This document shows, in pieces, positions 3,001 to 42,000 of a stretch of 64,000 bases of DNA; position 1 is the stretch's first letter, and every line of letters starts with the position of its first letter. This stretch comes from Candidatus Omnitrophota bacterium (lineage in GTDB: Bacteria; Omnitrophota; Gorgyraeia; Zapsychrales; Fredricksoniimonadaceae), in NCBI GenBank assembly GCA_903908245.1, contig CAIVRE010000024.1, positions 9,676 to 73,675 on the forward strand, read 5' to 3'. A program made the position numbers.

Positions 3001-6000
3001 CGGATAAAACGCGGGGGGGATTATCAGCATGTTGTCGGGAATGTCAGGCGCATGGTCGAGCTTAACAACAGAAGCAGGAAGCCCCTGACGATCATTGTCC
3101 AGATGCTTCGTGTGGAAGAGAATGGCGCGGAGTTTAAAAGTTTCAAGGCTTTTTGGGAGCGGGAGAAGCGCGTATTCGCGAAGAACAAGCCTTTTTCAAG
3201 CCGCGCCGGATCGGTCGGCAATAAGGCGCTGGTTTTGAGGAAAGGGCGCCTTGTCCGGTGTTCAAGGATCTGGAAGGGGCTGTATGTCTATGCGGACGGG
3301 ATGGTTGTCCCTTGTTGTAATGATTTTTTCTCCCGGCATCCGTTAGGGGACCTGAATTCACAGTCCATTGAAGAGGTGTGGAACGGGAAGGCTTTTGTTG
3401 ACCTGCGTCGGCATCATTGTACGGGGGAATTCGGACTGACGCCGATGTGCGGGGATTGCGAATTTCTCGGGACGGATTTTCATAAACAGCTGGCGACATT
3501 TGTGGTGGATGACCTTTCGGTGCGTCAATTGCTGGCGATCCTTGGCCCCGATTATTAGAGAGGGTTTATTGATGTTTCCCGTGGTTAGCAGAAGAGTGGT
3601 CGGTCTTTATAAAGGTGAACTGGCAGATATCGGGCGGCTGTTATTCCGGAAGCAGTTCATCAAGGGCCGTTACACCGATATCTTCGAGAAGGATTTTGCC
3701 AGGTATACCGGAGCGAAGTACGCCATTGCTGTCGGGTCCGGAAGGCTTGCGCTTTATGCGATCCTTCAGGCTTTGGATCTGCCCAAAGGCAGTCAGGTCA
3801 TAGTGTCGGCCTATGAGGATATGAGCGTCCCGGAGGCGATCCGCCAGGCCGGCCTTGAGCCTGTTTTCGTTGATATCGACTGTAAAACGCAGAATATCGA
3901 TCTGTCGCAGTTAAAAGGCAAACTGACGGATAAAACTTCGGCGGTCGTGGCGGCGCATATTTTTGGTAATCCGCTGGATGTCCCGGGGATCAGGGCGATC
4001 ATCGGTGAGCGAAAGATCTCGGTCATAGAAGATTGCGCGCATGCCCTGGGGACAAGGTTTGCCGGCGAACATGTCGGGACGGCGGGTGACGTTGCGTTCT
4101 TCAGTTTTAATACGACCAAGCCGTTCATGTGTTTTGGCGGCGGAATGATCATTACGGGTGATGAAAGGATCCATGACGCGTTAAGATCGTATACCAACAG
4201 TTTGCCTTATCCGGGGTATTTCGATATCATGAACCGGATCTTTTCGACGTATTTCCTGTATTTTCTGACTTCGGAGCTGGTGTTTTCTTTGTTTGTTTTT
4301 CCTTGCCTGAATTTTCTGGTCTTGATCAATGTTGAACCGAGGGTCATTTATAAAAAGTTATTTAAAAGATCGAAAAAGAGCATTGAGGCCGTAAAGTTCG
4401 CGAATATCCAGGCATTCATCGGGATAAGGAATTTTGAGGGCCTTGAGAATGCTTTGATGACAAGAGGGCGGAATGCCCGGATGCTGGATGCATTGATAAG
4501 AAGCGATATCAGCCGCCCATTACGGGCGGAAGGTTGTAATTATTATTTTTTTATCCTTTTTTCCAAAGATCGGGATGCTTTCAGGCGAAGGATGTTAAGG
4601 GAGGGGCTTGACAGCGGCCAGTCATTGATGAGGGATTGCGAGGCTCTTTTTAAAGCCAATGAGCTTTTTCCCAATACGGGCCTGAGCAGGGCGGAAAGCG
4701 TTCAGATCCCGGTATACGAGCAGTTGCCGCAGGGAAAGATCGAGGCGATCGCACGGATCATTAACAGGTGTTTTGTCTGTTGACGGTATTTATGTGGTGT
4801 TAGGGATCGGAAAATGAGCAAAAAAATCATTGGAAAGATCGGGATCCTGAGCCGGAAGGCGGGGATATGCGCCGCGTTCCTGAAGGCGGTCGTATCGGGC
4901 CAGGTGAAGCCTTTTGCCATAGGATGGTGCATAACGAACAGATGCAATTCAAAATGTGTTTACTGCCATTCCTGGAAAAACGCGGGTCCGGAGTTAAGCA
5001 CGGACCAGGCCAAAGAGATCATGCTTCTTTTGTCCAGCCGGGGGACGCGGGTCATTCGATTTACAGGAGGAGAACCGCTCTTGAGGGATGATCTGCCGGA
5101 ACTCCTTGCTTTGAGCAAAAGCCTGGGGATATGGACTGTCGTTGCGACGAACGGTATTCTAGTGCCGCTGAAGATCAGGGAGCTCAAGGGTGTTGACAGT
5201 GTCAGTATTTCCATTGATGGCCCGGAACATGTTCATGATGTGCTGCGCGGGGCCGGGTCCTATCAAAAAGCTGTGGAGGCGTGTGTTGTTTTATCCAGGG
5301 AGAATATTCCGGTCTCTATTTCAACGGTCTTGACGTCTTTGAATTCGGACAGTATTGAGCATGTCCTGGAACTTGCGTCGCGGTTCAGGGCGAAAGCCCA
5401 TTTTCAGCCGGCTACGGAGGTCATTTTGCGCGGGGATACCCCTAACGCATTTCTTCTTGAGGATGCTGATCGTTCCCGGGTGCTGGGCCGGTTGCTGGAC
5501 TTGAAGAAGAAGGGCGGGAGGGTCGGGAATTCAGGCGAGGCGTTGAAATACCTTTTAGGCCGGCCGCGCAGGGAGATCAGGGATTGTGTCGCGGGAAAGC
5601 TTTTTTTCCGGATCGAGGCGGAAGGAGATATGCGTGCTTGTCCGAGGTCGGGAAGACCGGCGGAGCGGTTAAATATATTAAGGCAGGGCCTGGACCATTG
5701 CCTGAAGAGCGTCGGTTCCCGCTCGTGTGATCATTGCCGGAGCGCCGCGATGATCGAAATGAATTTGCTCGCTGGTTTGAATTGGGGTTCCGTTGTTAAT
5801 GGCATAAGAAAGTTTTTTTGAATCCTGGCAATGAAAGGGTTGAATGAGGGTTGTTCTGGTCCATTGTCCTTTTGATCATCGGGACTTTTCAGAGAATCTG
5901 AAGGTCGTCGACGAGGAGTTCTGCCTTGCGCCGCCGGTCATCCTGGCGTATGTCGCGGCGATCCTGGAGAAGGCGGGCCATGATGTGATCATTGTTGATG

Positions 6001-39000: not shown

Positions 39001-42000
39001 GCGGGTCAAAAGACCTTCGGGTCTTTGACGCGCCGGGGCATATTATGTATTGCCTGCGTTGTGGATTCAAGTTCACAAGCCCGCGCAAGGTGTTGGACAA
39101 AGAGATCGCGGATAATGACGTTCAATACCGGCAGGAGCACAGCAAGACTTTTGATCGTCAGCGGTCATTGGCATCTTATGAACGGCGCATGGCTGTCTTT
39201 TGCCGTTATGCCCCTTGCGGCCGCGTGCTGGACGTCGGGGCCGGATTCGGCAGTTTCCTGCATTTATGCAAGGCCTCGGGCGCGTATGAATGTCATGGGA
39301 CCGAGGTCGCGGCTTTTTGTGTGGATTTCGCGAAGCAGGAGTTCGGGCTTGATTTAAAAGCCGGGATCCTGGAAGAGGCGTGTTACCCTTCATCCTATTT
39401 TGACGCGGTGACCATGTGGCATGTGCTCGAGCATGTGCCTTCTCCTGCGGCAATGCTGAGGGAGATAGCCCGGATTTTGAAGCCCGGTGGTTGTCTTTTT
39501 ATCGCGGTCCCGAATGATTCGGTTATGGCTCGTCCGGGTTTCTGGAAGAATTCAGTGAAGCTTGGCGTAAATCGTTTGCTGGGCCGCGATGCATTGAAAT
39601 TGAAAAAGATGTACCCGGTGTATGCCGAAGAGGGAAATTATCATCTTTCGCATTTTACGCCGGCGAGCATGAAGCGTTTGCTGGCGTGCAATGGGTATGA
39701 GGCGCTTGAGATAGGCCCGGATGACGCGTATAACCGTGTATCTGCCGGAGCCGCGAAAGCGGAGAGGTCGTTCGGGTTTGCCCTGAAGGTCCATGGTTTG
39801 ACGGGGATCGTTTCTTTTGACGCGTTGTTGGCAGTGGCCAGGAAAGTGTAGAGCGCAGATGACATCGGGTTTCAAGAGAGTACTGTTGATCAATCCTCCC
39901 GAGAGCGGGCAAGGCGCCGATACATCCGCGCCGATGGGCCTGATGTTCATTGCCGGGGTTTTACAGCAGAACGGGATCGCCGTACGCATTGTTGACGGAT
40001 GCCTTGACGGATTTGCGGAGGTGATGCGGGTTGTAGCGGAGTTCAAGCCTGACCTGGCCGGCATTGCCTGTCCCACGTATGCCCGTGTTCAGTCCTTTAA
40101 GATCGCCCGCGCGATCAAGGAGCATGACAGTTCTATTATTACTTTGTTCGGCGGGCATCATCCGACCCTTCTGGGGCAGCAGGTGCTCGCAAATTATCCT
40201 TTTGTTGACCTGATCTGCATCGGTGAGGGTGAATTTGTAACGCTGGACCTTTGTCAGGGCCTGGAATGGGAAAAGATCTCCGGGCTCGGGTTTCGCCGCA
40301 ATGGTGCGGTTATGATCAGTCCAAGGCGCCCTGATATCACCGATCTTGACCGGCTTCCTTTGCCGGCGTGGGATCTGATAGATCCTATGCGTTACAGGAG
40401 CAACGGGGACATCGTTATAGACGGGATCGATCTGAGCAAAGAGGTCGGCGCGACGATCTCGTTCTCCCGGGGGTGTATTGGCCGGTGTAATTTCTGTTCC
40501 CAGATGTGGAAGAAATGGAAATACCGTTCCCCTCAGCGGATCATGGAAGAGATCGAATTGCTGCATCGCCGGCATGGCATCCGGTGTTTCCATTTTAATG
40601 ATGATTGTTTTTCGGTCAAGAAAGAGGTTACTCTCGAGCTTTGCCGCCTTATTTGCGAGAGAAAGTGGAAGATCTATTTCAGTATTGTGACCAGGGCGGA
40701 TTGCGTGGATGAGGACATCCTGCGTGCGCTTAAAGAAGCGGGTTGTTATTCGATCGCGTTCGGGATCGAGACGGCCTCTCCGCGGCTTCTGAAGGTCATG
40801 CACAAGACGATCAAGCCGGAGCAGTCGCTCAGGGCGATCCAGTTGACCAATGCGTTTGGTATCCGGAGCCTTGCCCTGGTCATTGCCGGGGCGGTGGGAG
40901 AAACGTGGGAGTCGATCAATGAGACCATTGATTTTCTCAATGCGGCCAAACCGGCCCTGATCGGTGTTGCCAACGGGTTGATGCTTTTTCCCGGTACCGA
41001 GGTTTACGAGGCCGCGAAAGCCAGGGGTTTTATTGATGATGACTTCTGGCTGACGAATTATAACTGGAAGATTTATACGGCCGAGAATTCGCGGCTGATG
41101 CTCAATATTTTTGCCGAGGCTATTCATCATCGGCAGAAGCTTTCCCGCTTTCGGTTGGTGAATATGATCCGTTATCACCGGTTTGTCAGCCGGGAGGTTG
41201 GGATCGTTTTAAAGCAATTGTTCGTGAACTTGAGGCTTGTGCGGGAAAGGTCCAACAAGGACAAGCCGTTCATATTGCGTTGATCCATTATTCTGTCGGA
41301 GGGTTATGCCAGTACCGATCACGGCGGTCATTATTGTCAGGAATGAAGAAGAGCGGATAAAGAAGGCCATGGCATCGGCTCAGGCTGTTGCCGATGAGAT
41401 CATTGTGGTGGATGACGGTTCTTCGGATGGTACGGCGGATGTTGCCCGTGCGGCCGGGGCCAGGGTCGTTTCGCGTGCTCTAAATGGAAATTTCGCGGCT
41501 CAGCGTAATGCGGGTGCCGTGCTGGCAAAAAATGACTGGATCCTTGTGATCGATGCGGACGAGATCCTGCCCGAAGCTTCTGTGGCCGAATTGCGCCGGG
41601 TGTTTTCCGGCGAAGTGGATGCGGATGCGGCTTCTTTTCGGATCGTCAATGTCCTTTTTGATACGCCTCTTTTTTACAGCAGCGGCGATTGCCGGACCGT
41701 GAGGCTTTACCGCCGGTCGCGGTGCTCTTTCGGCGGGGAGGTGCATGAGAAGCTTTCGGTGCCGGGCAGCATCCTGCCCTTGGACGGGCAGATATGGAAT
41801 TATCCGGCCAGGCGCATGGATCATGTGTTCGTTAAGGCCCTTCAGTATACCGAGGTCGAGGCGGTGCGTTTTTGTGAGTCGGTGGCATCGGTCAGCGAGC
41901 GGGAGATCCGTTATCAGCTCACATGGAAATCGCTCAAGCGTTTCTGGAAGCTTTATATAAAGAACAAAGGGTATAAAGACGGGTTGCCCGGGCTGGTGTG

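Follow-up and report, generated by a model that had tools for sequence, protein, structure and literature searches.

Radical SAM enzymes of class-B lineage in two putative envelope-glycan loci of a Candidatus Omnitrophota bacterium

We have analysed a stretch of 64,000 nucleotides (hereafter the window) of contig CAIVRE010000024.1, assembly GCA_903908245.1 of Candidatus Omnitrophota bacterium, for three open reading frames (ORFs) encoding radical S-adenosylmethionine (SAM) enzymes, designated here RS1, RS2 and RS3 (472, 411 and 474 amino acids, respectively), which an initial annotation had described as three cobalamin (B12)-binding, or class-B, enzymes of one glycan region. RS1 and RS3 add two new members to the class-B radical SAM superfamily, both of them tied to glycosyltransferases in envelope loci. 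RS2, as far as its alignments allow it to be placed, descends from the same lineage, no longer has the cobalamin domain in full and belongs to a sugar-activation cassette with relatives on viral contigs. The best overall explanation, which we put forward tentatively and with somewhat less than even confidence, is that two separate envelope-glycan loci use radical SAM enzymes of class-B lineage as tailors of sugars. Our literature searches, including full text, retrieved no class-B radical SAM enzyme characterised in the synthesis of lipopolysaccharide (LPS) or of other envelope glycans (O-antigen, polysaccharide).

Domain architecture of the three radical SAM enzymes

The three ORFs are real and conserved genes. 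Proteins identical to RS1, RS2 and RS3 were found on 8–12 public metagenome contigs, the longest of 500 kb, and orthologues were detected at 69–86% identity, those with a named source belonging mostly to Candidatus Omnitrophota/Omnitrophica. For RS3, a TTG codon is present upstream, at position 39817, and the ATG at 39859 gives the product of 474 amino acids that is also found in public gene calls. The coordinates first assigned to the three genes and the CxxxCxxC radical SAM core of their products were both confirmed. The motif is formed by C208/C212/C215 (CPYECNFC) in RS1, C151/C155/C158 (CPFKCDFC) in RS2 and C206/C210/C213 (CIGRCNFC) in RS3, being invariant in 45, 77 and 52 homologues, respectively, and all three proteins exceed the Pfam gathering cutoff for Radical_SAM (PF04055; 69.3, 57.8 and 88.8 bits against 29.5). 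They are indeed not close paralogues: RS1 and RS3 share 30% identity across 349 residues, and RS2 shares 26–27% with either, confined to the radical SAM core. A cobalamin-binding-like N-terminal domain, initially ascribed to all three, was recovered in two of them, since RS1 and RS3 pass the Pfam B12-binding model (PF02310; 56.4 and 60.0 bits against a cutoff of 32.1) and RS2 gives no match to it. Absence of the B12 signature on formal scoring with hidden Markov models, named at the outset as grounds for giving up the class-B reading, is hence a property of RS2 and not of RS1 or RS3. Judged by domain content (B12-binding domain plus radical SAM), RS1 and RS3 are formally class-B enzymes.

In the AlphaFold2 model of RS1 (pLDDT 90.6), the Rossmann domain comprises five strands, as is usual in the main structural class. 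The best Foldseek matches of this model in the Protein Data Bank (PDB) were MgmA (E 4e-26, TM 0.65–0.72) and AprD4 (E 4e-25), followed by TsrM, OxsB, CysS and TokK. When the N-terminal domains were compared with the PDB on their own, that of RS3 retrieved the cobalamin-binding domains of TokK (E 2e-5) and OxsB (E 0.0045), that of RS1 gave nothing significant (best E 1.4) and that of RS2 gave no match at all. In the RS3 family, the GG-H and GEGE motifs are invariant. Outside the CxxxCxxC motif, four further cysteines of RS1 (C237, C278, C298 and C373) are invariant in 45 of 45 aligned family members, and might bind an auxiliary Fe-S cluster. Relatives of RS3 at 41–44% identity (P0072, P0115) are fused to class-I SAM methyltransferase domains, with a total length of about 700 amino acids.

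The model of RS2 (pLDDT 93.5) shows an N-terminal domain of about 105 residues that is four-stranded and Rossmann-like. With hhalign, residues 1–67 of RS2 aligned with residues 1–75 of the B12 domain of RS1 (86.8%, E 4e-6), the homology covering no more than the initial half of the class-B domain. A scan of the RS2 family with PF02310, member by member, gave a weak match in 3 out of 77 proteins (best E 6e-4). By alignment, RS2 is about 90 residues shorter than viral relatives of 502–504 amino acids, and the residues absent from it correspond to the linker and to the latter half of the Rossmann domain. It is because of this half-domain homology together with the missing residues that we place RS2 within the class-B lineage, as a member in which the cobalamin domain is no longer complete; a role as a cobalamin-dependent methylase is unlikely.

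A putative polyprenyl-phosphate-sugar module and a cassette shared with viruses

About 12 kb of unrelated genes separate locus A (4–10152), which holds RS1, from locus B, which starts at lptD (19753) and holds RS2 and RS3 (Table 1). The 'one glycan region' of the initial annotation is accordingly two loci, divided at 10.6–21.9 kb, and a single contiguous glycan island was considered and rejected on account of this spacer between RS1 and the other two genes.

The gene content of locus A suggests a polyprenyl-phosphate sugar route (synthase, flippase and glycosyltransferase of the GT-C type) with radical tailoring added to it. The GT-C enzyme, of PMT_2/ArnT-like type, is predicted to use polyprenyl-phosphate sugar donors, and the start of the flippase-like gene (7262) overlaps the stop of RS1. 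The DPM1/ArnC-like family 2 glycosyltransferase (GT2) of this locus is probably a polyprenyl-phosphate sugar synthase and the partner of RS1. Among the matches listed for homologues of RS1 at approximately 52% identity, about half carry a C-terminal GT2 domain, for a total of about 740 amino acids, and the GT2 of locus A aligns over its full length with such a fused domain (for example in P0209; 30% identity, E 6e-28). At least 532 relatives of RS1 occur among the species representatives of GTDB, of which 80 loci were kept for the neighbourhood counts. A GT2 of this type adjoins, or is fused to, the RS1 relative in 28 out of these 80 genomes, and homologues of the first small radical SAM gene of locus A (up to 69% identity) stand beside it in 27. 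In the complete Omnitrophota genome CP070837, a fusion of a B12 radical SAM enzyme with GT2 (10001–12238 of locus L008) is followed, in this order, by a methyltransferase, a second B12 radical SAM enzyme, another methyltransferase, a flippase-like protein fused to a methyltransferase, and Wzy_C.

The relatives of RS1 belong to many phyla, and some of the loci contain 3–5 class-B copies. By record titles, the family includes Omnitrophota, Elusimicrobiota, Planctomycetota, Myxococcota, Patescibacteria and archaea with small genomes, among them Woesearchaeota and Nanohalarchaeota. Several such enzymes in a glycan-type locus are common in uncultured lineages and not exceptional; the arrangement had been thought unusual for a cell-surface polysaccharide, which this distribution does not bear out. 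The window itself contains six radical SAM genes, four of which, in locus A, are contiguous but for one DegT gene; three of the six had been overlooked.

Locus B is assigned as an LPS-core locus because a heptosyltransferase that passes the WaaF model, an MsbA-like exporter gene and lptD (identified by Pfam) occur in it together. Here RS3 adjoins a GT2 gene, and in two other Omnitrophota genomes (L010, L011) orthologues of RS3 (65% identity) adjoin orthologues of this GT2 (62–65%) in inverted order. In an O-antigen locus of Thermodesulfovibrionales (L092), a homologue of RS3 with 42% identity follows wzm/wzt and is itself followed by GT2, a methyltransferase, GT2, a methyltransferase and two family 4 glycosyltransferases (GT4); the GT2 immediately after it is 29% identical to the one next to RS3. 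In the window, two GT4 genes are interleaved with RS3, its GT2 and four SAM methyltransferases of class-I/FkbM type (38961..45745), and a third GT4 gene lies at 45792–46940. The four conventional SAM methyltransferases reported initially were thus all recovered (Table 1).

The neighbours of RS2 are those of a sugar-activation cassette. They include a split, minimal thiamine pyrophosphate (TPP) enzyme, the two subunits of which were matched in the PDB to the alpha and beta E1 subunits of pyruvate/2-oxoacid dehydrogenases, with minimal PP and Pyr domains. The gene of a short-chain dehydrogenase/reductase (SDR) has its stop codon (30020) overlapping the start of RS2, and a GHMP kinase, a nucleotidyltransferase and a DegT aminotransferase follow in an order that is syntenic in L010 and L011. 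E1-like enzymes occur in branched-sugar pathways. Our reading is that the cassette would build an amino sugar bearing a two-carbon unit derived from TPP. Phosphonate biosynthesis (a Fom3-like enzyme with phosphonopyruvate decarboxylase) was also considered for this cassette and rejected, there being no phosphoenolpyruvate mutase and the TPP enzyme being of the E1/transketolase type, not Ppd. Two ORFs flanking the SDR–RS2 pair (27666–29042 and 31255–32466) have no NCBIfam match and are absent from the syntenic L011, and are hence regarded as variable additions.

Relatives of RS2 were found on 235 uncultivated viral contigs of IMG/VR. In 82 loci with such relatives, the neighbouring genes encoded the E1-alpha-like subunit in 58 loci, the E1-beta-like subunit in 52, DegT in 37, SDR in 34 and GHMP kinase in 33, at 41–57% identity to the genes of the window. 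The one contig checked among these (L151, 123.8 kb) is a T4-like aquatic myovirus, with genes for portal, major head, protease, scaffold and tail tube proteins, UvsW and gp46/47-like proteins. Its cassette (9440–15161) comprises radical SAM, E1_dh, Transket_pyr, GHMP kinase, DegT and SDR genes, and its radical SAM enzyme, of 504 amino acids, passes PF02310 (33.8 against 32.1 bits). This viral enzyme has no relative in GenBank phages (INPHARED) and no family in PHROGs, and a literature search on the cassette gave nothing relevant. Judged by the position of the CxxxCxxC motif, 63 of the RS2 relatives in the 82 loci have a long N-terminal domain (motif at residue 205 or beyond), and in 14 this domain is short, like that of RS2. 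As both forms occur with TPP subunits nearby, the half-domain missing from RS2 seems dispensable for the chemistry of the cassette. Its loss within an otherwise conserved cassette suggests that the radical step of RS2 proceeds without cobalamin, which argues against methylation.

Distant homologues of RS2 are also present on two large phage-like contigs, L094 (ENA ERZ4223250, 108.8 kb) and L095 (JGI 3300001866, 419.8 kb), the latter of which, at 420 kb, may be a jumbo phage. On one of the two, the homologue is accompanied by a NeuB-like synthase and a CMP-sugar transferase, suggesting a nonulosonic acid context; on the other, it occurs with two further B12 radical SAM genes.

Table 1. Positions of the radical SAM genes and of other annotated features in the window
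Feature	Coordinates	Strand	Basis and remarks
GT-C glycosyltransferase (PMT_2/ArnT-like)	4..1578	+	PMT_2 48.1 bits vs 26.1; weak Agl23, mannosyltransferase and STT3 matches
Small radical SAM protein without B12 domain	1575–2558	+	Pfam, NCBIfam
Radical SAM plus SPASM protein without B12 domain	2572–3558	+	Pfam, NCBIfam
DegT aminotransferase	3572–4783	+	Pfam, NCBIfam
Small radical SAM protein without B12 domain	4814–5821	+	Pfam, NCBIfam
RS1	5844..7262	+	472 aa; B12-binding Rossmann domain, radical SAM barrel, C-terminal helical domain
Flippase-like membrane protein LPG_synthase_TM	7262..8221	+	PF03706; TIGR00374 37.1 vs cutoff 43.2
DPM1/ArnC-like GT2	8218..8934	-	Pfam Glycos_transf_2; weak PgfS, AglJ, ArnC, PpgS and dolichyl-P hexose transferase matches
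Wzy_C membrane protein (O-antigen ligase/polymerase-like)	8941..10152	-	PF04932
Spacer of unrelated genes	10679..21936	+	DUF1015, accD, MFS transporter, ABC ATPase, two GGDEF, ROK kinase, lptD
Split minimal TPP enzyme, E1-alpha-like (205 aa) and E1-beta-like (178 aa)	25596..26749	+	E1_dh, weak Transket_pyr
SDR, epimerase/dehydratase-type	29088..30020	+	Pfam Epimerase; NCBIfam GalE/RmlB-like
RS2	30020..31255	+	411 aa; radical SAM of class-B descent (predicted), N-terminal domain truncated
GHMP kinase (HddA-like), NTP-transferase (HddC-like), DegT aminotransferase	33180..36042	+	NCBIfam
MsbA-like ABC exporter	36056..37834	+	TIGR02203 476 bits, below cutoff 602, hence MsbA-like only
SAM methyltransferase	38961–39851	+	Pfam
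RS3	39859..41283	+	474 aa; complete class-B radical SAM enzyme
GT2 glycosyltransferase adjoining RS3	41306..42085	+	Conserved neighbour
SAM methyltransferase	42092–42841	+	Pfam
FkbM-family methyltransferase	43979–44983	+	FkbM 94 bits vs cutoff 37.7
SAM methyltransferase	45011–45745	+	Pfam
LPS heptosyltransferase II, WaaF-like	49333..50388	+	TIGR02195 144.2 vs cutoff 134.6, passes

Proposed chemistry and competing explanations

The route that we infer for locus A, in its substrates and in the order of its steps, would begin with the DPM1/ArnC-like GT2 loading a sugar onto polyprenyl phosphate. RS1, together with the neighbouring small radical SAM enzymes and the aminotransferase, would modify the polyprenyl-linked sugar, the flippase-like protein would move it across the membrane, and the PMT_2 GT-C enzyme would transfer it to the envelope. 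In the LPS-core locus, RS3 would pair with its GT2, among O-methyltransferases and a carbamoyltransferase. In both RS1 and RS3, reductive cleavage of SAM would yield a 5'-deoxyadenosyl radical, which would abstract hydrogen from an unactivated carbon of the sugar, and a methyl group would be transferred to that carbon from methylcobalamin. Such C-methylation is plausible for RS1 and for RS3 and is the leading option for each, with a likelihood that we put a little short of even. RS2 would most probably carry out its radical step, be it dehydration, epimerisation or rearrangement, without cobalamin, and the sugar concerned would in addition gain an amino group and a two-carbon unit derived from TPP. 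If RS1 or RS3 does methylate or rearrange lipid-linked sugars, radical chemistry and a requirement for B12 would become part of how the envelope is built in uncultured lineages of wide distribution. From the fusions with GT2, a concrete candidate substrate can be named: the product of the fused GT2.

A more specific proposal, which we regard as possible although rather doubtful, is that two uncharacterised sugar-tailoring systems are built on radical SAM enzymes of class-B lineage. In the first, the module of RS1 and GT2, a cobalamin radical SAM enzyme, frequently as a fusion with a DPM1-like GT2, could remodel a polyprenyl-linked sugar before it is flipped, either by C-methylation or by ring contraction to a carbasugar. 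In the second, a six-gene cassette with RS2 would make a C-branched amino sugar, and would be common to Omnitrophota LPS-core loci and viral contigs. Phages might use it in remodelling the host surface or a component of their own, and a cassette shared in this way would represent an auxiliary sugar pathway so far unrecognised among T4-like viruses of aquatic habitats.

Scoring against NCBIfam, with about 25 class-B families, did not bring RS1, RS2 or RS3 to any curated cutoff. The top model for RS1 and RS2 was HpnJ (TIGR03471, cutoff 577.6; 148, 90 and 154 bits for RS1, RS2 and RS3, respectively) and that for RS3 was BchE (TIGR02026, cutoff 481; 126, 81 and 197 bits). Lower scores, in the same order, were obtained with AprD4 (NF033070, cutoff 500; 94, 71 and 86 bits), the PhpK family (cutoff 600; 98, 72 and 104 bits), HpnR (cutoff 650; 76, 32 and 92 bits), KedN5 (cutoff 700; 30 bits, no match and 67 bits) and a C-methyltransferase model for ribosomally synthesised and post-translationally modified peptides (RiPPs; cutoff 282; 64, 27 and 121 bits). 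RS1 also matched a ladderane-associated family (118 bits) and BzaD (113 bits), and no model for GenK, GenD1, Fom3 or MoeK5 was among the NCBIfam matches. In the PDB sequence search, AprD4 was the best solved relative of all three enzymes, followed by MgmA/QCMT (9CCB) for RS1 and RS2 and by OxsB and then MgmA for RS3, with TsrM, TokK and CysS thereafter. Because the top models are non-methylating ones, no family was passed and the best solved relative is AprD4, the multiple C-methyl groups predicted in the initial annotation were an over-reach. Its wider idea of class-B methylation in sugar loci is retained in part: RS1 and RS3 are class-B enzymes in envelope-glycan clusters, C-methylation being the commonest chemistry of the class, and RS2 falls outside it.

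MgmA, the glutamine C-methylase of methyl-coenzyme M reductase, is compact like RS1 (about 450 amino acids), but acts on a protein, with 20% identity and a score of 91 bits against a cutoff of 360 (TIGR04014). BchE, the anaerobic Mg-protoporphyrin monomethyl ester cyclase, belongs to a tetrapyrrole context of which there is none around RS3, and no tetrapyrrole genes were found in the window. The automatic names 'BchE' and 'YgiQ' given to these homologues at JGI derive from likeness to BchE and carry no functional meaning here. GenK, GenD1, Fom3 and MoeK5 are listed as Csp3-methyltransferases (PMC12931638). They resemble RS1 and RS3 in architecture (B12 Rossmann domain and CxxxCxxC barrel) and carbohydrate setting, the likeness being one of architecture and not of sequence-level membership, but come from actinomycete antibiotic pathways and not from LPS or envelope loci; they also differ from the RS1 family, which is fused to or paired with GT2, and from RS2, in which one half of the cobalamin domain is missing. 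MoeK5 belongs to the pathway of a phosphoglycolipid, a setting that resembles the lipid-linked sugar proposed for RS1.

Several points weigh against the sugar-tailoring explanation and the C-methylation it favours. The curated models that score highest, HpnJ and BchE, are non-methylating, none was passed, and AprD4, the nearest solved relative, is cobalamin-free. AprD4 and ArsL lie in the same sequence network as class-B enzymes without binding cobalamin, so that a Rossmann-like domain is no guarantee of it (PMC12931638), and cobalamin binding by RS1 and RS3 is itself predicted. In the Foldseek search, the methylases MgmA and TsrM, the cobalamin-free AprD4 and the ring-contracting OxsB fell within a few orders of E-value, and because they rank so near each other the fold does not discriminate the chemistry. 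Sequence and structure cannot separate methylating from non-methylating class-B enzymes in general (PMC12931638), and the call for C-methylation consequently draws mainly on base rate, each functionally characterised class-B group including C-methyltransferases (PMC12931638). No genes for B12 synthesis or uptake were found in the window (gene calls, Pfam and our own scans), and across Omnitrophota the pathway for making cobalamin is 'present but not universal' (PMC10066038). By tblastn, the flippase-like gene co-occurs with RS1 relatives in only 6 of the 80 genomes and the Wzy_C gene in only 3, which may be due only to the weak sensitivity of that search on membrane proteins. One homologue of RS3 (46% identity) has murJ and signalling genes as its neighbours, none of them encoding a glycosyltransferase. 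Lastly, that RS2 and the viral enzymes of full length are orthologues is an assumption drawn from synteny. For the annotation of such proteins, a match to the B12 domain should not by itself be taken to mean methylation, nor a Rossmann-like N-terminus to mean binding of B12.

The most serious rival, above all for RS1, is that RS1 and possibly RS3, as class-B enzymes without methylating activity, rearrange a sugar already linked to lipid by GT2, giving a carbocyclic head group instead of a C-methyl sugar; we consider this unlikely, although deserving of attention. HpnJ works downstream of the glycosyltransferase HpnI, its proposed reaction being the contraction of bacteriohopanetetrol-glucosamine to a cyclitol ether, and the calditol synthase Cds acts on a glycosylated tetraether lipid, so that radical SAM enzymes working, with ring contraction, on a sugar placed on a lipid by a glycosyltransferase have been described (PMC13459092). 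HpnJ is the best NCBIfam model for RS1 and aligns with it end to end, including the C-terminal domain (residues 31–461 to model positions 34–462 of 472), the lengths being the same, and the coupling or fusion of RS1 with GT2 mirrors the HpnI–HpnJ pair, in which a sugar is likewise added to a lipid. Furthermore, the non-methylating enzymes fall within the largest class-B sequence group, with nothing setting them apart (PMC12931638). The HpnJ score of RS1 is, however, far below its cutoff and barely above those of BchE, the ladderane-associated family and BzaD. HpnJ lies in a context of hopanoid genes, and Pfam and NCBIfam scans of the window found none (shc, that is squalene-hopene cyclase, hpnH, hpnI or hpnK). 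The mechanism of HpnJ has, moreover, been deduced from a knockout only.

For RS2, an alternative of still lower probability is a radical 1,2-diol dehydratase like AprD4, in which the overlapping SDR would serve as an AprD3-type reductase and a sugar would be deoxygenated at an unactivated position. AprD3 is the NADPH-dependent partner reductase of AprD4. AprD4 is the best solved relative of RS2 both by sequence (E 5e-15) and by fold (E 1.5e-20, TMq 0.71, at 17–18% identity, before TsrM, MgmA and MiaB), the SDR gene is physically linked to RS2, and a homologous SDR is found in 34 of the 82 loci. AprD4 (PDB 6FD2), a 1,2-diol dehydratase from the apramycin pathway, has a sugar as its substrate and a Rossmann-like N-terminal domain that binds no cobalamin (PMC12931638). 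It is, however, only 17–22% identical to RS1–RS3, its substrate is a pseudodisaccharide of an antibiotic pathway, and its NCBIfam model gives RS2 a lower score than HpnJ and BchE do. The most constant partner of RS2 is the TPP enzyme and not the SDR, and the chemistry of AprD4 needs no TPP enzyme. With regard to the other two proteins, the N-terminal domain of RS3 contrasts with that of AprD4 in matching true cobalamin binders (TokK and OxsB), and that of RS1 matches nothing significantly.

It is improbable that one or more of the three enzymes act on a non-sugar substrate (lipid chain, peptide or cofactor) and are mere neighbours of glycan genes. Class-B enzymes do modify lipids, peptides and tetrapyrroles (PMC12931638, PMC13459092), some NCBIfam matches are to lipid or RiPP families (ladderane-associated, ApyD), and the RS3 homologue next to murJ would fit; against this stand the GT2 fusions, the GT2 adjacency that is kept across rearrangements and phyla, and the place of RS2, in phages as in bacteria, within a sugar-activation cassette. 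The full initial claim, of three cobalamin C-methylases adding several C-methyl groups to one polysaccharide in a B12-dependent envelope, is very improbable, given that RS2, with only one half of the B12 domain, does not pass the model, that the genes lie in two loci serving different routes, and that B12 genes are absent from the window in a phylum where cobalamin synthesis is patchy (PMC10066038), even though most characterised class-B enzymes are methylases (PMC12931638), two of the three pass the B12 model and a B12 methylase, MgmA, is the best fold match of RS1.

Other genes of the spacer and of locus B

In the spacer, just upstream of lptD, two adjacent genes for GGDEF diguanylate cyclases (one with GAF domains) and a ROK kinase gene were found at 16429–18731. 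In addition to the genes already described, locus B encodes two nucleoside diphosphate-sugar dehydrogenases, several SDRs, a GDP-fucose-synthase-like protein, GT4 and GT2 transferases and a carbamoyltransferase. The last of these, of NodU/CmcH type, is followed by small SxtJ-like and DUF5989 proteins (46942–49333), a trio that lies within the LPS-core locus, that suggests an O-carbamoylated core sugar and that was also found with identical sequence on other contigs (L006, L007). Five ORFs of the window, encoding products of 403–730 amino acids, gave no significant Pfam match; these are the two that flank the SDR–RS2 pair and those at 56550–58061, 58791–60983 and 61675–63159, and the product of 730 amino acids among them has a sub-threshold match to YfhO only.

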